Shown here: one piece after another, positions 3,713 through 12,761 of the stretch
Position numbering within the stretch: position 1 is the first letter of the stretch
Layout: each line of letters starts with the position of its first letter
NCBI GenBank assembly: GCA_965223325.1
Contig: CBDCWI010000001.1
Location: forward strand, 704,001-768,000
Origin: Candidatus Multivoradales bacterium
GTDB lineage: Bacteria; Acidobacteriota; Thermoanaerobaculia; Multivoradales; Multivoraceae
Reading direction: 5' to 3'
DNA: 64,000 nt
Translations under genes and position numbers: made by a program
The notes under the pieces: model-generated
Databases searched by the model: none
What the model was told of the DNA's origin: nothing
The model's input: only the letters and a program-made list of their open reading frames with translations

Positions 3713-6283
3713 CTAGGGTGACTCCCAGACCCCGCAACTCTCGCCACTACCGATGGGCGAACCGTCGGGCGCTATGGGCGGCGGCGGTAGCTCGAATGCG
3801 AGCGGATCGTTAAAGAAGCGCTCGAGGGTCCAGGCTGCGGCCGATCGGTGCGCGCCCTCTTCGGCCGAGGGGCGCTCGCTCTTGAGCCGTTCGGCGAGTG
3901 CGGTCAATTCGTCGTAGGCGATGGCACGAGCCTCGGCCGAGGCACGGTCCGAAACCGCCAGGTTCATCAGATGACGCAGGGCCACCGCGTCGACCACCCG
4001 GCCAACGGCACCTTCGAGGCCGTCACCGTGATTGCCGTCCCAGGTTACCAGGAGCAACGCATCGATCACCTCGGTAAGGTCCGGCTGGTTCTCGTCGCGG
4101 GCGTTCTGGACCACCAGGCGAGAAGCCCTCTCGGGGTGGAGAAGCAACCCGACGGTCATCTCGGCCGCCACCTCGGCGGCGGCAAGAGGATCGAAGGTCA
4201 CCCCGGTTCTGGTAGGCAGGTGCTCGCGCCCCCGACCGAGACCCGCGGCCGGCGGCGGTATCGAGGCCAACACACTCTCGGGCAAAGCCAGCCTATCCGG
4301 AGCGATGGTCGCTAAGACAGAATCGAGGGCGCGCCGTTGCACCGCAGGCTCGAGAGCCGCCGTCGGAACCTGGCCGTCGCCGCGCACGGCGTAGGTGTAG
4401 TCGAGCCCGCCCACCATCTTGGTTGCCGCCTCAACCTGGTAACGGTGGAAAAGGTAGAGCGGAGTCAACACGGCGTCGAGGTTCGAGAGCGGAACACCGT
4501 TTCTGATGTTGCGCTCCCCAAACCGCGACAGCGCCAACTCGCGCACCGCCATCATGCGCTCGAGCTCTTCGGCCGCGTCGGTGCCGTTGTCCCACAGGTG
4601 GGCCCGCGGATGGGCGCCGCCCAGCGGGCGGGCATCCTGGTCGGAGAGAAACGACCAGCCGTTCTCGCGCGTTTCAGCGAGGAGCTGCTCGAGGGCGGCT
4701 TGCTCATCGGTTCCCGGCGGAAAGACTTCATAGCCGTAGCGAACCGCATAGGCGTCCCACTCGCCGATGCCGGTGTCGTAGGCGGCGGCGGCGGAGATCT
4801 CGCCGTTGTCGTCAATCTCGAACAAAGGGTGTGGATAGTCCATCACCGAGGCGCGCCCATCGACGCTCGAGGTGTAGTTGTGCACCAGGCCAATCGTGTG
4901 ACCGACCTCGTGCGCCGAGAGCTGGCGCAGTCTCGCGAGCGCCAGCTCCTCTATGGCGGACGGCACCGTCTCTCCGTCCTCGTAGGGAGCCAGAAGTGCC
5001 TCGGCAATCAGATAGTCCTGGCGCACCCGCAGCGATCCGAGAGTCACTTTGCCCTTTAGAATCTCGCCGGTGCGCGGGTCGACTACCGCGCCGCCGTAAG
5101 ACCACCCACGGGTCGAACGATGCACCCACTGGATGAGGTTGTACTGGAGATCGAGCGGGTTCGCGTCTTCGGGCAACATCTTGACGATGAACCCATTCTC
5201 GAAGCCGGCGGCTTCGAACGCCTGGTTCCACCACCGCGCTCCGTCAAGCAGCGCCGAACGAATCGGCTCTGGAGTTCCCGGATCGAGCCAGTACACGATC
5301 GGCTCGACCGGCTCGGAGACCGCGGCGCCCGGGTCCTTCTTCTCGAGACGATGGCGAATGACGTAGCGCTGCTCGATCGGCTGTGAGATCGGCGTCGCGT
5401 AGTCGAAGAACGACTGCGAGATGTAGCCGGAGCGCGGGTCCCACACCCGCGGCTGGTAGCCGTCGTCGGGCAGCTCGACGAACGAGTGGTGCTGACGCAC
5501 CGTGACACTGGTCGGGTCGGGAGCGACCGAGCGCAGCCAGCGGCCCTCTCCGCTACCGGTGAAGGTGAGCGTCGCTTCGAGCTCGGTGTTCTTCGCGAAA
5601 CTACCGGTGTACTCGAGGTAGGGCGCCGAGCGACTGGCGTCGAGGCTGTACTTACCCTCTCCGGTGGCATCGAGAGTGGCTGCTACGCCATGCGCGTCGC
5701 GCAGAAGAAACGGAGTGACATCGAAGAGCACTTTGCCGTCTTTCTCCCCGACGACTTCGAAGCCAAAGAGCACCGACTCAGCAAAGGCCTCGCGCACCGC
5801 CCGGCGCTCGGCGGCGCTGTCCGAGTTGGCGCGATAGCGCGTATTGCGCTCGACCAGCAGAACTCGATTGCCCACCCGTCGTAGATCGACCAACCGTGAT
5901 CCGCCGAGCTGGCCGCGGTCGAGGCCAATGTCGTTCGAGCCGACGCCGGCAGAGAGACCGCTGACGTAGAGGAACTCTTCGTCGAACAGGTCCGTGGCGA
6001 GAAGCACCTTGCCCTTTCGCTCGTCCCAGTAGAGATCGAAGAAGCCCGGCCAGTGCTCGCTGCCCTCGGTCGCTTCGGCGAAGGCTCGGCTGGCCTGACG
6101 GGAAGGCTCGCCTTCCGCCACACTGTCGGTAGCGAGAGCCTCAGTCGGAGGGCTTTCTTGGGTCGCACTGGTTGTGCCCAGCGAGGCGCAGCCCAGAGTT
6201 GCCAGGAGAAGAGTCGCCAGGAGGAGAAAGAGCAGGGAGACATCGAGCAGACGGGTGGCAGAATGGTTCAGAGCCATGACCAA
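3713..6283 (-). CDS. Secreted or lipoprotein zinc metalloprotease (DUF5117/DUF4953 metzincin-like)
   Basis: Signal peptide with lipobox-like LATLGC; HEVGHTIGLVH (HExxHxxGxxH); Met-turn SVMDY; VDPRTGEI motif. Confidence 0.88.
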   Translation of the reverse strand: MVMALNHSATRLLDVSLLFLLLATLLLATLGCASLGTTSATQESPPTEALATDSVAEGEPSRQASRAFAEATEGSEHWPGFFDLYWDERKGKVLLATDLFDEEFLYVSGLSAGVGSNDIGLDRGQLGGSRLVDLRRVGNRVLLVERNTRYRANSDSAAERRAVREAFAESVLFGFEVVGEKDGKVLFDVTPFLLRDAHGVAATLDATGEGKYSLDASRSAPYLEYTGSFAKNTELEATLTFTGSGEGRWLRSVAPDPTSVTVRQHHSFVELPDDGYQPRVWDPRSGYISQSFFDYATPISQPIEQRYVIRHRLEKKDPGAAVSEPVEPIVYWLDPGTPEPIRSALLDGARWWNQAFEAAGFENGFIVKMLPEDANPLDLQYNLIQWVHRSTRGWSYGGAVVDPRTGEILKGKVTLGSLRVRQDYLIAEALLAPYEDGETVPSAIEELALARLRQLSAHEVGHTIGLVHNYTSSVDGRASVMDYPHPLFEIDDNGEISAAAAYDTGIGEWDAYAVRYGYEVFPPGTDEQAALEQLLAETRENGWSFLSDQDARPLGGAHPRAHLWDNGTDAAEELERMMAVRELALSRFGERNIRNGVPLSNLDAVLTPLYLFHRYQVEAATKMVGGLDYTYAVRGDGQVPTAALEPAVQRRALDSVLATIAPDRLALPESVLASIPPPAAGLGRGREHLPTRTGVTFDPLAAAEVAAEMTVGLLLHPERASRLVVQNARDENQPDLTEVIDALLLVTWDGNHGDGLEGAVGRVVDAVALRHLMNLAVSDRASAEARAIAYDELTALAERLKSERPSAEEGAHRSAAAWTLERFFNDPLAFELPPPPIAPDGSPIGSGESCGVWESP

Positions 6284-6468
6284 AGACCTCGTTAGGGACC
6301 GGCGGGCCCCGCTGTTGAAGGCCGCGCCAGGCGGCGCGGCAATCGCGGCCGTTTAAAAGGACGCGAACCCCCATTCGGGGGCTCTTAGGAAAAGGACGTT
6401 CAAGTTCAGATTGCGGCCATCTTAGTCCGAGCCCTCGCGCACGCTCCAGCGTTCGACCGCTCCCCCGC

Positions 6469-9400
6469 TCAGGCTCCGCTGCTCGCGGCACCACCGTGGC
6501 GCGCAACGATTTCGAGCCACTCCCCGCCCCACCGGTCGGCTTTGGTCGGCCCAATGCCAGGAATGCGGAGGAGGGCGTCCGGGTGGCTGGGCTGAGCCGC
6601 CGCCAGCGCAACGAGGCTTTTGTCGTGCAGGATGGTAAAGGCCGGGACCTTGCGCCGGCGAGCCTCTGCCAACCGCCACTCGCGCAGGGCGTCGACCAGC
6701 GCCTCTGGTGCGTCTGCACCAACCAGAGCGAGCTTCTTGCCGGCACCTTTCGCCCGCGAGCGGCGCCTGCCTCCCGAGCGGCGGCTCTTCTTGGCGGTCT
6801 CATCGGGAAAGGCGTCCTCGGGAAGGCGAATGGCTGCCAGGACGGCATCGAGGCCGGCTGCGCCTGAGTCCGCCGCAAAGGCGTCGTTCCCCCCTCGCCG
6901 GCTGCTCCAGAGACGCTTGATCCGCGACCCGAGGCGGGCGCGCTTGTACTCGATCTTGCGCCCGTCTTTTTCGAACGAGTCGACATCGACCAGGACCAGA
7001 CCGGCGCGCGCGAGACCACCCAGGAGGTCCTCGAAGTCGCCGCGATCAGTCGTGGCGTGGATGCCGTGGACGTCTTTGAACAGACGCCCGGTGCCCTGAC
7101 CGCGGCGCGCCTTCTCGAGCTCCACAAGAATGGTCTTCATCACCTGGACCTCGTCACTGTGCGGAGCACGTGACCCCAGGGCCAGTGCCTCGTCTGGGGC
7201 ACAAACGTCACACTGCCCGCAGGCGCGACCGTCGTCTTCCTGGTCGCCAAAGTGACGCACCAGCGACAGCATTCTGCAGGCATGCCCCTGTGCGAAGCGA
7301 CACATGTCCTCGAGCTGAGCGGTGCGATGGTCGCGTTGCGCAACGTAGGGTTGCCACCAGTTCTGGTGGCCCTGGCGGAGGTTCTCCTCGGGATCGACCA
7401 GCGCGCCGCCGTGGATCCACAGCTTCTCGACCGACGGTCGCATGACCTCGTCGTCGAGGTCGAGCATCGCCCCTACTTCGTCGATCGTGCGCGGGTCTTT
7501 CCCGAGCGCACGCCAGATCTGAGCCAGCACTTTCGGGTGCGGGTAGTCGCGGCCGTGGAAGAACTCGTGCGTGCGGCGGTCGGCCCACGACCAGAGCAGG
7601 AAGGCGCGGGAGCTCCGACCGTCGCGCCCGGCCCTGCCGATCTCCTGGTAGTAGCCCTCGAGGGTGCCGGGCAGGGCGGTATGAACGACCGAGCGCACAT
7701 TGTGCTTGTCGATTCCCATGCCGAAGGCGATCGTGGCGACCACTACATCGACGTCTCCTTCGAGGAAGCGCTTCTGTACCTCGTCGCGACGCGCCGAGGG
7801 CAACCCCGCGTGGTAGGCCTCGGCACCGAACTCGCCCTCGAGAACCGACGCGATGTTCTCGGACTCCTTGCGGGTCGGAGCGTAGACAATCGCCGGCCGG
7901 CGTTCCGAGGCCGCCAAGAGGCGGGCGACCACTGCTGCCCGCGCCCCCGGACGGATTTCTGCCACCTCGATGGCAATGTTGTCGCGCCGGAAACCATGGA
8001 TGTGAAGGGCAGGCTTCAGGAGGCCCAGCTGCTCGGCAATGTCGCGCTGAACCCGCGGGGTCGCAGTCGCAGTAAGCGCGATCACTGGCGCCGGGCGAAG
8101 CGCCGGCAGCCGTTCTCCGAGCAGGCGATAGTCCGGCCGGAAGTCATGCCCCCACTGCGAGATGCAGTGCGCCTCGTCAATGGCGACGAGACCGGGCGGC
8201 TGAAGAGCCAGGAGCTCAGCGAAGCGTTCGATTCCCAGGCGCTCGGGTGCGACGTAGAGAAAGTCGAGCTCACCGTTCTGCCACGCGCGAGCCGCCGCCC
8301 TCGACTCCTCGAAGGGGCGTCCCGAGTGAATGCGCTCGGCGGAGAAACCGTCTTGCTGAAGCTTGATGACTTGATCTTCCATGAGCGCAATCAGCGGTGA
8401 AACCACCAGGGTCGAGCCGCCCCTGGCGATACCGGGCAGTTGGTAGCACAGTGACTTGCCGGCGCCGGTCGGCATCACCAGCAAAACATCGCGGCCAGCG
8501 ACCACCGCCTCGCAGACGCGTTCCTGGAAGGGCCGAAAGTCGTCGAAGCCAAAGCGCTCAGCGAGTACCAGCTTGATTTCGAGGGGTGCGCCGGCCCTGG
8601 CCCGGGTACGCGCCCGCTTGCGGGCCGGCGGTTTCGCCGGCGCCTCTTCGTCCGGCGACGCCTGCTGGAGAAAGGTCTCGCTTGGCGACGTTCGAGCTGG
8701 CGATGCGCCAGGGGCTGCCACTGGCGCGCGACTCGGGCCAGGTGACGATTCCGGTACCCCGCCCGGCGCAGGAGACGCCGCGGCCCAGTCTTCACCTTCG
8801 AAGAGATTGAGGGTGCCTGGTTCTTCTGGTGGCTGGTCTTCTGCAGCCGGCGCGGTCGCATTCCCCGCCGCTTCGCCGAAAGTTCTACCGACCGCCTCGC
8901 GCACGAAATCCTCGATGCCCTGCCAGAAGACGGATAGTTCACCTTCGCCGCGCTCGATCGCCTTGAGCTGCGCTTCCCACTCACCGGTCAGGGCAGGGCT
9001 CTTGACCATCGGGTGGACGCGCGCAATAAGGTCGATTCCTTTCTCGGTCGCAGCGAGTGCCTTCTTTAGTCGTTCGATATAGCCGCGGCGCAGCAAACCC
9101 TCGATGGTCTCGGCGCGAGTCGCCGGAGTCCCGAGACCACGATCCCGCATCGCCTCCTCTAGCTCCCGTTCGTCGAGGGTCTTGCCGGCAGTTTCCATTG
9201 CGGTCAAGAGGGTGGCCTCGGTGAACCTCCTGGGAGGTCGGGTCTCTTTCTTCTGACTCTCGAGGAGAGCGCAACGGCCCGGGAAGCCCTCTTTGAGCTC
9301 GGCAGGCAGCTGGCTCTCCTCCTTGGACGCTTTGGAGGACTTCTTCTTGCGGCCTCTGCCGCGCGGCAGCTCGAGGTCGAGCACCTTCCAACCTGGATCG

Positions 9401-10863
9401 AGGGTTTGCGTGCCGCGGCTCTGAAAACGATCTCCGGCCTCGGATTCGACCAGAGTGATGACGATCGTCGTGGCGGTTTTCCAGGGCACATGCCAGGCCA
9501 TCAAGAGACGGCGACAAACCAGATCGTAGAGCCTCGCCTCGTCTCCCGAGAGACTCTCCGGCGCCCGGTTCTCGGTCGGAAGAATGGCGTGGTGGTCGGT
9601 CACTTTGGACCCGTCGACGAACCGCTTCCCGAGCTTTTTCTGGCCAGTGCCGGCGGCCAGTTTGCCAGCGTAACGATGTTCGATCGCGGCGACGACCTGG
9701 GGCAGCTCGGCCTCGTTTTCCGGCGCGATGTGGCGACTGTCGGTTCGTGGATAGGTGATCAGCTTGCGCCCTTCGTAGAGACCCTGCGCAACCTGCAGGG
9801 TGCGCTTGGCACTCCAGCCCCACAGGCGGTTGGCGTGCCGTTGAAGCTCGGTCAGGTCATAAAACCGTGGCGCCGCCATCGAACGCTGGCGGGCATCGAG
9901 TGACTCGACGCGAGCCGGCGCGTTCAGACAGCGCTCGATGATGGCGGCGACCTGCTCTTCTGGGCCGGGCCCTTCGGCTGACTCCTTCTTCTCGCCGCCC
10001 GCTTTGGCTTCATCGGGCACGAAGAAACGAAAGGCCTTTTGGTCCTTGGGGTCGGCAAGGTAGCGGCCCTTCCAGACCACCGGCGAGCCCTCCTCTGAGG
10101 TGCCTTCAAAAGAGGCATCGGAGACAGGCCGCCCTTCGAACGTCGCCTCGACCTCGAAGTAGGTCTGCGGCACGAAGGCCCGTATCTCGAGTTCACGCTC
10201 GACGACCATCGCCAGGGTCGGCGTCTGCACACGGCCGACCGGCAGGGTTTCGTCAGCCGCGAGGCTGGTCGCCCGCGACAGGTTCATGCCCACCAACCAG
10301 TCGGCGCGGCTACGCCCGCGCGCCGCGTCGGCGAGACCGTCGAAGTCTTCCGCCGGCCGCAGGTTCAAGAAGCCCTGGCGAATCGCAGCCGTGGTCATGT
10401 TCGAGATCCACAACCGACGCACCGATTTCCTGGCTCCCGCTGCTTCGTAGAGGTACCGGAAGATCAACTCGCCCTCGCGACCGGCGTCGGTCGCCGACAC
10501 GACGCCAGTCACCGCCCGCGCCCGCAACAGGCGCTTTACGACAGCGAACTGCTCCCTGGTCTTCTCCTGGACCGCAAGGGGCCACTCCTCAGGCAGCATC
10601 GGGAGAGCGCTGCGACGCCAGCGCTTCCAGTCGGGGCGGATTTCGTGGGGCTCGGGAAGCCGCACCAAATGGCCGATCGCCCAGGTGACCAGCCAGTCGT
10701 CGCCTTCGAGGTAACCGTTGCGACGCTGGTTGGCCCCGAGGACCCGGGCCAGGTCTCGCGCCACGGAGGGCTTCTCGGCCACTACCAGGGTTTTCTTGCC
10801 GGTGGGGGCGGGTTCACGTGTGGCGTTCTTTTTGCGCCTCGATTTCTTCCTGGTTGGTGACAT
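6469..10863 (-). CDS. topB: DNA topoisomerase III - RecQ helicase - HRDC fusion protein
   Basis: One open frame contains TOPRIM (VAEKPSVA, ATDAGREGE), catalytic ITYPRTDS and GLGTPATRA, then a Pro/Ala linker. After it come RecQ motif 0 FGFDDFRPFQ, MPTGAGKSLCYQ, DEAHCISQWGHDFRPDY, YYQEIGRAGRDG, Zn motif CGQCDVC and HRDC LREWR...VPAFTIL. Start taken as ATG 10863. Confidence 0.93.
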   Translation of the reverse strand: MSPTRKKSRRKKNATREPAPTGKKTLVVAEKPSVARDLARVLGANQRRNGYLEGDDWLVTWAIGHLVRLPEPHEIRPDWKRWRRSALPMLPEEWPLAVQEKTREQFAVVKRLLRARAVTGVVSATDAGREGELIFRYLYEAAGARKSVRRLWISNMTTAAIRQGFLNLRPAEDFDGLADAARGRSRADWLVGMNLSRATSLAADETLPVGRVQTPTLAMVVERELEIRAFVPQTYFEVEATFEGRPVSDASFEGTSEEGSPVVWKGRYLADPKDQKAFRFFVPDEAKAGGEKKESAEGPGPEEQVAAIIERCLNAPARVESLDARQRSMAAPRFYDLTELQRHANRLWGWSAKRTLQVAQGLYEGRKLITYPRTDSRHIAPENEAELPQVVAAIEHRYAGKLAAGTGQKKLGKRFVDGSKVTDHHAILPTENRAPESLSGDEARLYDLVCRRLLMAWHVPWKTATTIVITLVESEAGDRFQSRGTQTLDPGWKVLDLELPRGRGRKKKSSKASKEESQLPAELKEGFPGRCALLESQKKETRPPRRFTEATLLTAMETAGKTLDERELEEAMRDRGLGTPATRAETIEGLLRRGYIERLKKALAATEKGIDLIARVHPMVKSPALTGEWEAQLKAIERGEGELSVFWQGIEDFVREAVGRTFGEAAGNATAPAAEDQPPEEPGTLNLFEGEDWAAASPAPGGVPESSPGPSRAPVAAPGASPARTSPSETFLQQASPDEEAPAKPPARKRARTRARAGAPLEIKLVLAERFGFDDFRPFQERVCEAVVAGRDVLLVMPTGAGKSLCYQLPGIARGGSTLVVSPLIALMEDQVIKLQQDGFSAERIHSGRPFEESRAAARAWQNGELDFLYVAPERLGIERFAELLALQPPGLVAIDEAHCISQWGHDFRPDYRLLGERLPALRPAPVIALTATATPRVQRDIAEQLGLLKPALHIHGFRRDNIAIEVAEIRPGARAAVVARLLAASERRPAIVYAPTRKESENIASVLEGEFGAEAYHAGLPSARRDEVQKRFLEGDVDVVVATIAFGMGIDKHNVRSVVHTALPGTLEGYYQEIGRAGRDGRSSRAFLLWSWADRRTHEFFHGRDYPHPKVLAQIWRALGKDPRTIDEVGAMLDLDDEVMRPSVEKLWIHGGALVDPEENLRQGHQNWWQPYVAQRDHRTAQLEDMCRFAQGHACRMLSLVRHFGDQEDDGRACGQCDVCAPDEALALGSRAPHSDEVQVMKTILVELEKARRGQGTGRLFKDVHGIHATTDRGDFEDLLGGLARAGLVLVDVDSFEKDGRKIEYKRARLGSRIKRLWSSRRGGNDAFAADSGAAGLDAVLAAIRLPEDAFPDETAKKSRRSGGRRRSRAKGAGKKLALVGADAPEALVDALREWRLAEARRRKVPAFTILHDKSLVALAAAQPSHPDALLRIPGIGPTKADRWGGEWLEIVARHGGAASSGA

Positions 10864-11075
10864 TGAACTGACTCTCTCAGGTTCTGACGGTTGTCGAAAG
10901 GGCTGTTCTGACGCGTCTTTCCAGACGGAGTGCCTGCCTGGGCTCTCAGTACCCTGAGACGCAAAATGGCGCCGAAACATGACGTGCTCTGTCCCATGCG
11001 ACTCGCGAGACCCAAGGGTCCAACACGGCTAGACTCGCCTCCATCCCGCTCCTCCCAAGAGAGGTCAGAACGCCC

Positions 11076-12761
11076 ATGCCTCGACCCCCAGCCTGCCGAC
11101 ATCACGAGCCGCAGCAGCCGCGGCGCCCGAGGGCCAACTCGCCAGGCGCCCTTCCAAGCATCGTCGTTTTCCTCCTCTCGGCGGCACTTCTCGTTGGCTG
11201 TCCTGAACCCGAGCCCTTTTCGTTGGTCATCTTGCACACCAACGACACGCACGCCCGTTTCCTGCCCACCAACCAGATCGGTTCCACCTGCCGCGACGAA
11301 GACCGCGCCGAGCGCTCTTGCCGCGGCGGCGTCGCGCGACGCGCCTCTCTAGTCGCCGACGTACGCAACCAACACCCCAACGTCCTTCTCCTCGACGCCG
11401 GCGATCAATTCCAGGGCACGCTTTTCTATTCGCGATTCAAGGGGCTCGTGGCGCAGCGCACCATGAACGCTCTGGGTTACGACGCGATGGTCCTCGGCAA
11501 CCACGAGTTCGACGACGGCCCGCCGGTGCTGGCCGAATTCGCCAAGGGCCTCGAGTTTCCCCTGCTCGGCGCCAACATCGATACGAGCGCCGAGCCTCTC
11601 CTGGCTGGCCTCATCGAGAGCAGCACCGTTGTCGAGCGCAGCGGCCGCCGTATCGGAATCGTCGGCTGGATCACTGAAGAGACCGCCCAGCTCTCGAGCC
11701 CCGGCCCAACCGTAGAGTTCGGGGCTATTCAGAGCGCCGTCGAACGTGAGGTCAAGAGTCTCACGGCCCAGAACATCGACGTCATCATCGGGCTCTCGCA
11801 CGCCGGACACCGCTCTGACCTCGAGATCGCCAGAACGGTCGCCGGTCTCGATGTGATCGTCGGCGGTCACACCAACACCCGGCTCTCCAACACCGACGAA
11901 GACGCCGAGGGGCCGTATCCCGAGGTCGTCACAGGGCCTGAAGGTGACCCCGTCCTGGTCGTGACCGACTTCGCCTGGGGCCACTATCTCGGTCAGGTGA
12001 CCGTCGAGTTCGACGCCAAGGGCAGAGCGTTGACCTGGGAGGGCGAGCCGCGACTTCTCGACAGCGACGTACCCGAGAACCCAGCGATGGCCGAGCTGCT
12101 CGCTCCGATGACGGCCGAGATCGCAACCTTCGCTGCCGGTGAGGCAGGCTCGAGTACCGTCGACCTGATCGGACGCGAAAGCATCTGTCGAGCGCGCGAA
12201 TGCAACCTCGGCAATTTGATTGCCGACGCTCTCCTCGACGCCCACCGCGAGGTCGGAATCGAGGTCGCCCTCCAGAACGGCGGCGGCATTCGGGCCAGCC
12301 TTCCCGCCGGCGCCATCAGTCGCGGCCAGGTGCTCGAAGTGCTTCCGTTCGGCAACACGGTCAGCACTTTTGGATTGCTCGGTCGCGATCTCGGAGCGGT
12401 ACTGGAACATGGCGTTTCGCAAGCACACGACCTCGACCTCGGCGGCACCGGACGGTTCCTTCAGGTGGCCGGTCTGCGCTACCGCTTCGACGTGCGAGAA
12501 CCGCCGGGCGAGCGCGTCCTCTCGGTCGAGGTGCAGGAGGCCGACGGCAGCTGGCAGCCGCTCGACCGAGAACGGACCTATCGCGTCGCCATGAACGCCT
12601 TCAACCGCAACGGTGGCGACGGCTACACCGTCCTCGCCGAGCGCGCCATCGACCCCTACGACCAGGGAGCCACCCTGGCAGAAGTGGTGACGGACTATCT
12701 GGTCGAGCATGCGCCGGTGGAGCCGACGATCGACGGCCGGATTGTTCGAATCGAGAACTGA
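11076..12761 (+). CDS. 5'-nucleotidase / UDP-sugar hydrolase (UshA-like) lipoprotein
   Basis: Lipobox-like LLVGC; metallophosphoesterase motifs HTNDTH, DAGD, GNHEFD and GGHT; C-terminal NGGGIR domain. Exact start uncertain. Confidence 0.9.
   Translation: MPRPPACRHHEPQQPRRPRANSPGALPSIVVFLLSAALLVGCPEPEPFSLVILHTNDTHARFLPTNQIGSTCRDEDRAERSCRGGVARRASLVADVRNQHPNVLLLDAGDQFQGTLFYSRFKGLVAQRTMNALGYDAMVLGNHEFDDGPPVLAEFAKGLEFPLLGANIDTSAEPLLAGLIESSTVVERSGRRIGIVGWITEETAQLSSPGPTVEFGAIQSAVEREVKSLTAQNIDVIIGLSHAGHRSDLEIARTVAGLDVIVGGHTNTRLSNTDEDAEGPYPEVVTGPEGDPVLVVTDFAWGHYLGQVTVEFDAKGRALTWEGEPRLLDSDVPENPAMAELLAPMTAEIATFAAGEAGSSTVDLIGRESICRARECNLGNLIADALLDAHREVGIEVALQNGGGIRASLPAGAISRGQVLEVLPFGNTVSTFGLLGRDLGAVLEHGVSQAHDLDLGGTGRFLQVAGLRYRFDVREPPGERVLSVEVQEADGSWQPLDRERTYRVAMNAFNRNGGDGYTVLAERAIDPYDQGATLAEVVTDYLVEHAPVEPTIDGRIVRIEN

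Follow-up and report, generated by a model that had tools for sequence, protein, structure and literature searches.

A gene in the genome of a Candidatus Multivoradales bacterium (Acidobacteriota; Thermoanaerobaculia) encodes a topoisomerase III and a RecQ helicase in one polypeptide. It lies in a window of 64,000 nt, which is the whole stretch analysed here (GenBank assembly GCA_965223325.1, contig CBDCWI010000001.1, positions 704,001 to 768,000). It is an intact bacterial gene for a single chain, in the order topoisomerase III and then RecQ, as judged from its sequence and homologues. The two halves probably work together as a covalently tethered RecQ-Topo III strand-passage machine. Joint action is proposed because both active sites are strongly constrained, the tether is flexible, and the protein is the sole RecQ and the sole topoisomerase III of its host. 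The preliminary description of this DNA, made from the letters alone, had suggested the same kind of tethered pair. The idea is supported by catalytic residues that show no variation in any of the 50 aligned fusions and by a linker that is variable and predicted to be disordered. Every enzymatic activity is attributed here by family membership, and the coupling of the two halves is inferred.

Coordinates are positions in the window, and residue numbers refer to the 1503-aa frame (P0001) unless stated otherwise. The open reading frame (ORF) covers 6469..10980 on the minus strand and gives 1503 aa from its first ATG, with no internal stop in either the ORF listing or the translation. Domains were called by a Pfam profile search of the protein, and family cut-offs were taken from NCBIfam. 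Six Pfam domains follow one another along the chain: Toprim (64-194), Topoisom_bac (214-681), DEAD (816-978), Helicase_C (1017-1121), RecQ_Zn_bind (1214-1260), and HRDC (1426-1492). ORF, Pfam, and NCBIfam results all confirm the original description of a complete type IA topoisomerase, a linker, and a complete RecQ in one stop-free frame.

The start at 10863 (Met40) is likely the right one and leads to a protein of 1464 aa. It is preferred because the public gene call (P0002) has the same length and because the homologue consensus begins a few residues before the AEKPS motif. Another ATG, at 10980, is in frame 39 codons upstream and is a possible start, with no counterpart in the homologues. 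The span of 6469-10863 proposed earlier is therefore right in its start, on which the public gene call and the homologues agree, but it had to be corrected in one respect, in that the minus strand carries the gene. The frame remains open past the preferred start (10864-10980, minus strand). The preferred protein opens with a basic tail of ~24 aa (MSPTRKKSRRKK...), and the homologue consensus has no such tail.

The integrity of the sequence was examined with Logan contigs from four public runs (two samples of one study, which may be the source of the assembly), compared with 6300-11100. No RNA run was found among the public runs listed. One contig of 17,815 nt spans this entire interval with 0 other letters and 0 gaps. 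The second contig covers 6300-10041 and the third covers 8149-9719, and neither shows any difference. The linker junction is covered by contigs from three runs, with 0 differences and 0 gaps. Because these contigs match base for base, the junction is free of frameshifts and stops. The junction had been singled out in the preliminary description as the place to be confirmed, and the public-run contigs show neither a stop nor a frameshift in the linker.

By profile and alignment, the topoisomerase half is a complete type IA topoisomerase III of the Bacillus-type PRK07726 subfamily. Two NCBIfam models for topoisomerase 3 are passed: PRK07726 with 629.5 bits (cut-off 597) and TIGR01056 with 543.8 bits (cut-off 515.75). 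The alignment to Escherichia coli topoisomerase III has an E-value of 8e-79 and includes the Toprim Glu; the motif ITYPRTDS stands opposite KLITYPRSD of the E. coli enzyme. The active-site Tyr is invariant in all 50 aligned fusions. The Toprim Glu (in AEKPS), the first Asp of the acidic cluster, and the following Glu are present, and they too are invariant in the aligned fusions. In fusions of the Corallococcus type, the Tyr motif is present and reads SYPRTASRH. We take residues 502-519 of E. coli topoisomerase III to be the "decatenation loop" specific to this subfamily. The E. coli segment GIARFVQDKDLKKILRAT aligns with GKTLDERELEEAMRDR of the fusion with a one-residue gap, and this segment is highly conserved in the fusion consensus.

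The RecQ half is, by the same kinds of comparison, a complete member of the RecQ family, and it is not filed as an equivalog of E. coli RecQ. The family model recQ_fam (TIGR00614) is passed with 383.1 bits against a cut-off of 219.8. The alignment to the E. coli RecQ core (1oyw) has an E-value of 4.8e-92 and matches motif 0, Walker A, DEAH, the aromatic-rich loop, and the four zinc Cys residues. FRPFQ, PTGAGKS, and DEAHCISQWGHDFRP align with E. coli RecQ and are invariant across the fusions. The zinc domain matches PF16124 (E-value 5.8e-8), and its four Cys residues, aligned to the Cys motif of E. coli, are invariant in the fusions. Taken over both halves, the Toprim Glu, the catalytic Tyr, the Walker A motif PTGAGKS, the DEAHC motif, and the four zinc Cys residues are invariant in 50 of 50 fusions (53-58% identity). 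The same catalytic and zinc motifs are retained in 12 fusions from Myxococcota.

No Pfam match at E <= 0.01 was obtained over the winged-helix region (residues 1262-1425). The fold was predicted with AlphaFold2 for the RecQ half (710 aa, 76-row alignment), with a predicted local distance difference test (pLDDT) score of 91.0 and a predicted template modelling (pTM) score of 0.87. The model contains, in order, two RecA lobes, an insert, the zinc helices, a winged helix, two short disordered stretches, and the HRDC bundle. The best Foldseek matches of this model are BLM (4cgz_A; E-value 2e-34, 727 columns including HRDC), Cronobacter sakazakii RecQ (4tmu_A), and E. coli RecQ (1oyw; E-value 3.5e-33, TMt 0.72). 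Thus, the winged-helix-like region noted in the preliminary description is confirmed by fold (AlphaFold2 and Foldseek) and not by a sequence model. The insert between lobe 2 and the zinc domain is ~55 aa long, compared with ~17 residues in E. coli RecQ; in the sequence alignment to the E. coli core, the additional stretch amounts to ~65 aa. The insert is conserved (column identity 0.64) and is present both in the fused genes and in the RecQ-only orthologues.

The two halves are joined by a linker of 104 aa. It had been described as a linker of ~100 aa rich in Pro, Ala, and Lys with a junction at ~8560-8880. The length and the place hold (8578-8889), and so does the abundance of Pro and Ala; Lys does not, with 2 residues among 104, and the composition is rich in Ala, Pro, Glu, Gly, Arg, and Ser. 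Across the 50 fusions, the linker varies from 41 to 233 aa with a median of 111 and is rich in Pro, Ala, Gly, and Ser. In the 12 Myxococcota fusions, it varies from 36 to 277 aa. Among the 50 fusions, the linker has a column identity of 0.16; the topoisomerase reaches 0.72 and the helicase core 0.83. A single-chain model was made for 1200 residues (topoisomerase, linker, helicase, and zinc domain) from a 58-row alignment of whole fusions. The linker has a pLDDT of 29-41 in this model and is predicted to be disordered. A complex prediction for topoisomerase residues 24-660 and RecQ residues 1105-1464 had a score of 0.00, which is taken as neither for nor against docking. The protein is read as beads on a string, in which a transient or DNA-dependent interface may nevertheless form.

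The host genome (6.69 Mb in 2 contigs, 98.2% complete) contains two type IA topoisomerase genes, the fusion and TopA (TIGR01051, 799.9 bits against a cut-off of 456.4). Only one of its eight RecQ-family matches is over the cut-off, and this is the fusion. The fusion is the sole topoisomerase III and the sole RecQ-family gene of the genome. The best reading is that it represents the housekeeping RecQ/Topo III of its hosts and is probably not a mobile or defence gene.

Sequence comparison indicates that the fusion is conserved in three phyla: Acidobacteriota, Myxococcota, and Bdellovibrionota. In the protein collection, 6579 of 8000 candidates match at E <= 0.001, and the best 120 were listed. 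All of these 120 carry all six Pfam domains, in proteins of 1332-1570 aa. The named records among them are "DNA topoisomerase 3/III" from metagenome-assembled genomes (MAGs) of Thermoanaerobaculia or Acidobacteriota. In the ESM Atlas, six clusters have the family set of the fusion, and three of them hold 96, 70, and 322 members. An exact look-up assigned five fusions of the Myxococcota sample described below to Corallococcus: C. coralloides, C. macrosporus, C. soli, and unclassified members of the genus. For homologues on long contigs, a look-up gave no name for 7 of 10 proteins, and named records were present only in clusters 4, 7, 9, and 10. The same clusters contain records of the strains C. 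coralloides DSM 2259 (cultured; UniProt H8N181) and C. macrosporus DSM 14697. The earlier suggestion that similar fusions may be present in databases proved right, with thousands of matching proteins, a shared architecture in the best 120, and cultured Corallococcus among the carriers. The public names are only "DNA topoisomerase 3/III" or "ATP-dependent DNA helicase RecQ", and the architecture is thus hidden by annotation.

Among species-representative genomes, 590 stretches encode a relative; the 80 best of them were retained for analysis. Both halves are in one frame in 31 of these 80 loci and in different frames in 2; 32 have the RecQ half only, and 15 have topoisomerase III only. The fused single-frame architecture was confirmed in 45 loci overall. 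By their titles, fused loci of Acidobacteriota belong to Terriglobia, Bryobacterales, Solibacteraceae, and Thermoanaerobaculia. Fused loci are also found in Myxococcota (L016, L018, L021, L031, and L042) and Bdellovibrionota (L019, Oligoflexus, and L022), as well as in single MAGs titled Proteobacteria (L014) and Solirubrobacteraceae (L041). The two loci with halves in different frames (L034 and L047) are both from MAGs; L047 shows four frame changes. They may represent sequencing errors or decaying genes.

In the window's phylum, 33 of 401 sampled genomes have a topoisomerase III over the cut-off, and 7 of them, including the host genome itself, have it in frames of 1348-1519 aa. The other six long-frame genomes and one more (G301) were fetched, and 7/7 are fused, giving 8 fused genomes out of 401. 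A second sample, of 151 genomes, was drawn from the phylum to which a Myxococcota MAG belongs; 34 exceed the cut-off, and frames as long as a fusion (1216-1815 aa) occur in 23 genomes. The frames fetched from this sample are fused in 8/8 cases and keep all motifs. In many genomes of the Myxococcota sample, a further type IA gene is present, with a frame of ~940-1100 aa (for example, G426:C1:1346205-1348232). It scores 560-617 bits on the topoisomerase 3 model (cut-off 597) over model positions 1-650 and may be either TopA or a topoisomerase III-like paralogue. Two stand-alone topoisomerase IIIs, L104 (G107:C48) and L105 (G209:C1), are in long frames of 1063 and 1057 aa (862 aa for L105 in a second analysis) without a RecQ half. 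They may bear other C-terminal extensions.

The topoisomerase tree (71 rows, quick IQ-TREE run, LG+G4) contains 43 fused halves and 28 stand-alone topoisomerase IIIs from Bacillota and the window's phylum. All 43 fused halves are on one side of a branch with 99% support in the Shimodaira-Hasegawa-like approximate likelihood ratio test (SH-aLRT), and the 28 stand-alone sequences are on the other. One origin of the fusion is therefore sufficient. In the RecQ tree (85 rows, rooted on 8 paralogues), the fused and the RecQ-only orthologues form one clade with 100% support, whose first branches are fused sequences from Bdellovibrionota and Myxococcota. The fused and RecQ-only states are interleaved; 14 changes are needed, and the starred branches alone force at least 5-7. 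Constraining the 36 RecQ-only rows to one clade costs 318.8 log-likelihood units (approximately unbiased (AU) test, p 4.9e-64). The RecQ-only genes are thus not one clade, and the state changed several times. The simplest history would be a single fusion, inherited for the most part vertically but in some cases transferred between phyla, with the topoisomerase module lost repeatedly. We infer the direction of this history, since it depends on the paralogue root and on quick trees.

Among 41 genomes related to the host, 7 have the fusion in one frame, 1 (G040) has it broken at a contig end, and 13 have the RecQ orthologue only. G040 was considered as a natural split. This was ruled out, as the topoisomerase half stops at a contig end and the RecQ half begins at base 4 of another contig, which indicates an assembly break in the linker. 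In the RecQ-only relatives tested (G011, G016, G027, and G034; loci L107-L113), TopA is the only type IA gene in 4/4. In these RecQ-only lineages, topoisomerase III would have been lost altogether once the fused module had gone. Five genomes with stand-alone topoisomerase III were also tested. In four of them, the only RecQ is a shorter one, whose match is limited to the helicase core. The genome G233 has a RecQ-only orthologue and, in addition, a topoisomerase III of another lineage.

Two placements in the trees disagree with the titles of the sequences. The fused gene of L041, from a MAG titled Solirubrobacteraceae (Actinomycetota), nests in the Bryobacterales clade in both trees, suggesting mis-binning or horizontal transfer. 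The RecQ-only gene of L029, titled "candidate division WWE3", is placed among Myxococcota, which suggests a mis-binned contig or horizontal transfer.

Table. Features of the topoisomerase III-RecQ gene and its 3' flank in the window.
Feature	Position	Strand	Remarks
Whole fusion gene	6469..10863	-	1464 codons and stop at 6469-6471; frame open upstream to alternative ATG 10980
Toprim domain	10399..10791	-	Pfam; catalytic Glu 10774-10776; D-A-G with Asp 10486-10488 and Gly 10480-10482, then Glu 10474-10476
Type IA core (Topoisom_bac)	8938..10341	-	Pfam E-value 6.6e-103; active-site Tyr 9751-9753 (Y410), motif ITYPRTDS
Low-complexity linker, 104 aa	8578..8889	-	Residues 698-801; A 23, P 18, E 11, G 10, R 8, S 8, K 2
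RecQ helicase lobe 1 (DEAD)	8047..8535	-	Walker A Lys 8455-8457 (K842); DEAH 8167-8178, followed by aromatic-rich loop
RecQ helicase lobe 2 (Helicase_C)	7618..7932	-	Pfam; alignment to E. coli RecQ
Clade-specific insert, three helices and two strands	7372..7536	-	phmmer gap relative to 1oyw; model residues 356-410 of RecQ half
RecQ zinc-binding domain	7201..7341	-	Pfam; four Cys 7276-7278, 7219-7221, 7210-7212, 7201-7203
Winged-helix (RQC-like) domain	6895..7158	-	Three helices and beta-hairpin; AlphaFold2 model and Foldseek to 1oyw and BLM 4cgz
HRDC domain	6505..6705	-	PF00570, Pfam E-value 5e-19; helical bundle in model, pLDDT 85-96
Terminator-like GC-rich hairpin and T-run	6365..6384	-	~85 nt past stop codon; consensus match only; 9 sites against 4.2 expected in region

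The flanking genes are not tied to DNA repair on either side. Downstream, 3713-6283 (minus strand) encodes an 856-aa met-zincin with DUF5117 and DUF4953. Upstream and divergent, 11076-12761 (plus strand) encodes a 561-aa metallophosphatase/5'-nucleotidase. The GC content is flat over the locus (0.64-0.67). The neighbours and the GC content give no sign of an operon, a mobile element, or a defence island; a PADLOC scan and an integrase search were not made. A scan of the region found no sigma-70-like promoter upstream of the fusion gene.

A mechanism can be proposed for the tethered protein. The RecQ half, driven by ATP, would open duplex DNA at forks, D-loops, Holliday junctions, or late replication intermediates. 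The tether would keep the topoisomerase at a very high local concentration beside the single strands exposed by RecQ. The topoisomerase would then cut one strand, pass another, and reseal the first. The outcome may be unlinking, catenation or decatenation, or the dissolution of joint molecules without crossover. In E. coli, RecQ, Topo III, and SSB carry out this reaction as separate proteins, and so do BLM/Sgs1, Top3, and Rmi1 in eukaryotes. In such a protein, a whole RecQ would stand where type IA topoisomerases have a variable C-terminal tail that binds DNA.

Some of the findings weigh against this mechanism. The second acidic position of the Toprim DxDxE cluster (TDAGREGE) is Gly in 50/50 fusions, so that the second Asp is replaced in all of them. 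This appears to be a trait of the PRK07726 subfamily and not of the fusion. Among the stand-alone Bacillota topoisomerase IIIs fetched (loci L071-L086), the position is non-Asp in 15/15 (Gly in 14 and Ala in 1), and the motif is D-S-G, D-A-G, or D-S-A. A dead topoisomerase, considered on account of the DxG motif, is judged unlikely, because the change is common to the stand-alone enzymes of Bacillota. On the helicase side, the RecQ equivalog model TIGR01389 is missed with 477.9 bits against 640.2, and it is matched in three stretches. With this miss and the clade-specific insert, the properties of E. coli RecQ may not transfer to the fusion. The single-chain model has a pLDDT of 85.5 but a pTM of 0.59; each module is confident and their mutual placement is not, and no defined interface is indicated. 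In addition, RecQ-only descendants apparently arose repeatedly, and 4/4 of those tested are without topoisomerase III. Because these genomes hold no topoisomerase III, the RecQ half evidently can work alone, and coupling would be dispensable in some lineages.

The persistence of RecQ-only forms without topoisomerase III in these 4/4 genomes also favours another explanation: the fusion could be merely a device for co-expression that ensures stoichiometry without coupling, with the two enzymes acting independently or the linker being cut in vivo. A long, disordered linker of very variable length would suit such a device, and so would the lack of a confident placement between modules (pTM 0.59). 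It is nevertheless unlikely. None of the 28 stand-alone topoisomerase IIIs sampled falls among the 43 fused halves, which are separated by the 99% branch. Because no stand-alone gene is found among the fused halves, this topoisomerase lineage seems, within the sample, to be kept only while fused. The fusion is also retained over three phyla with both active sites invariant, and the passages available from PMC2647321 and PMC7614492 describe the RecQ-Topo III partnership as established in E. coli and eukaryotes. Less likely again is a mesophilic, docked machine similar to reverse gyrase, whose product would be ATP-driven positive supercoiling or another change in linking number and not the processing of joint molecules. 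A superfamily 2 (SF2) helicase and a type IA topoisomerase are indeed present in one chain, and in the ESM Atlas, the family set that ranks next behind the fusion clusters is that of reverse gyrase (score 0.86), which is no more than a lead. The domain order is, however, reversed, and the helicase is a complete RecQ with zinc, winged-helix, and HRDC domains. The reverse gyrase model TIGR01054 reaches only 94.5 bits against a cut-off of 471.7, through the topoisomerase part only. A disordered linker of 36-277 aa between modules that are not packed against each other (pTM 0.59) also does not fit a docked machine.

Judged by gene content, neighbours, GC content, and trees, it is very improbable that the gene is an accessory of a mobile element or a defence system. 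The patchy spread over Acidobacteriota, Myxococcota, and Bdellovibrionota is compatible with mobility, and the gene labelled Solirubrobacteraceae inside the Bryobacterales clade hints at horizontal transfer or mis-binning. The trees, on the other hand, largely group the sequences by taxon. The gene is the only RecQ-family gene and the only topoisomerase III of its genome, its neighbours are a met-zincin and a 5'-nucleotidase, and the GC content shows no change. An artefact of assembly or sequencing, in which a frameshift error or a chimeric contig has merged two adjacent genes, is refuted as far as sequence data allow. Two of 80 related loci (L034 and L047) do hold the halves in different frames, which shows that some assemblies have errors or pseudogenes at this locus. 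Against this, contigs from three public runs, which may be the source samples, cross the junction without differences or gaps, and one spans the gene. The single-frame architecture also recurs in 120/120 best database proteins, in 45 loci, and in finished genomes of cultured Corallococcus strains. The tethered RecQ-Topo III machine accordingly remains the preferred reading, as a probable one.

RecQ helicases and topoisomerase III cooperate from bacteria to humans, and defects in the human pair cause Bloom syndrome. The physical link between their activities remains under debate, above all in bacteria. That three phyla retain a natural fusion in which both active sites are intact is independent evolutionary evidence that selection acts on the partnership as a unit. 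Biochemistry, single-molecule experiments, and cryo-electron microscopy could moreover be done on a single protein, with split halves and natural linkers of 36-277 aa as built-in controls. Cultured hosts (C. coralloides DSM 2259 and C. macrosporus DSM 14697) make genetics feasible. More speculatively, the tether may give properties that separate partners lack, although we consider this doubtful at present. The protein would then be self-sufficient in ATP-driven strand passage without SSB or an RMI1-like adaptor, dissolving double Holliday junctions or unlinking converging forks, with the linker length tuning its reach. It would have arisen once and been kept as the sole RecQ/Topo III in many Acidobacteriota, Myxococcota, and Bdellovibrionota. 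If true, this would make it the first dissolvasome found in nature as a single chain, and it could serve as a minimal model for BLM-TOP3A-RMI.

A full-text literature search found no description of a natural topoisomerase III-RecQ fusion; subscription journals, supplements, and InterPro architecture tables were outside its scope. This agrees with the preliminary description, whose author, a model, knew of no biochemical study. The fusion is a known partnership in a covalent form not described so far, in sequences that have long been public and automatically annotated. Its closest stand-alone relatives on the topoisomerase side are the PRK07726 enzymes of Bacillota, with 39-45% identity and the same Gly or Ala at the second acidic Toprim position. 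Unlike the fusion, they have a short tail after the core (frames of 623-792 aa), with no linker and no RecQ, and they are on the opposite side of the 99% branch. On the RecQ side, the RecQ-only orthologues of Acidobacteriaceae, "Candidatus Multivorans", Polyangium, and Nannocystis are full-length and 43-59% identical, with the insert and the zinc, winged-helix, and HRDC domains all present. They differ from the fusion in having no topoisomerase within 3 kb. In the part of PMC12288472 that was available, RecQ of Myxococcus xanthus is listed as a helicase only.

Reverse gyrase likewise has an SF2 helicase and a type IA topoisomerase in one chain. To our knowledge, no other natural protein has been described in which an SF2 helicase-like module is fused to a type IA topoisomerase. 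Its order is the opposite, with the helicase at the N-terminus, and its helicase module is not of the RecQ family with zinc, winged-helix, and HRDC domains; the fusion, in contrast, has a long disordered linker. The match to TIGR01054 is far below the cut-off of that model and restricted to the topoisomerase part. The abstract of PMC7245102 calls the fusion of helicase and topoisomerase units in reverse gyrase unique to hyperthermophiles. The gene reported here qualifies the view, taken from that abstract, of reverse gyrase as the only natural fusion of a helicase and a type IA topoisomerase (PMC7245102).

According to the available parts of PMC2647321 and PMC7614492, E. coli RecQ and Topo III (with SSB) resolve converging forks and recombination intermediates, and BLM or Sgs1 with Top3 and RMI1 dissolve double Holliday junctions. 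The E. coli pair RecQ and TopB belongs to the same two enzyme families, encoded by separate genes there and in one polypeptide here. The fusion differs from this pair in its Bacillus-type PRK07726 topoisomerase with DxG for DxD and in its RecQ, which is below the equivalog cut-off and has an extra insert. The RMI1 OB-fold (PF08585) has no match in the host genome; the search was equally silent in 14 control genomes and is hence uninformative. BLM-TOP3A-RMI1/2 and Sgs1-Top3-Rmi1 likewise combine a RecQ-family helicase having zinc, winged-helix, and HRDC domains with an enzyme of the topoisomerase III type. The eukaryotic RecQ-Top3 contact is non-covalent and is made through the N-terminal region of the helicase and the OB-fold of RMI1. 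In the fusion, by contrast, a covalent linker connects the C-terminus of the topoisomerase to the N-terminus of the helicase.

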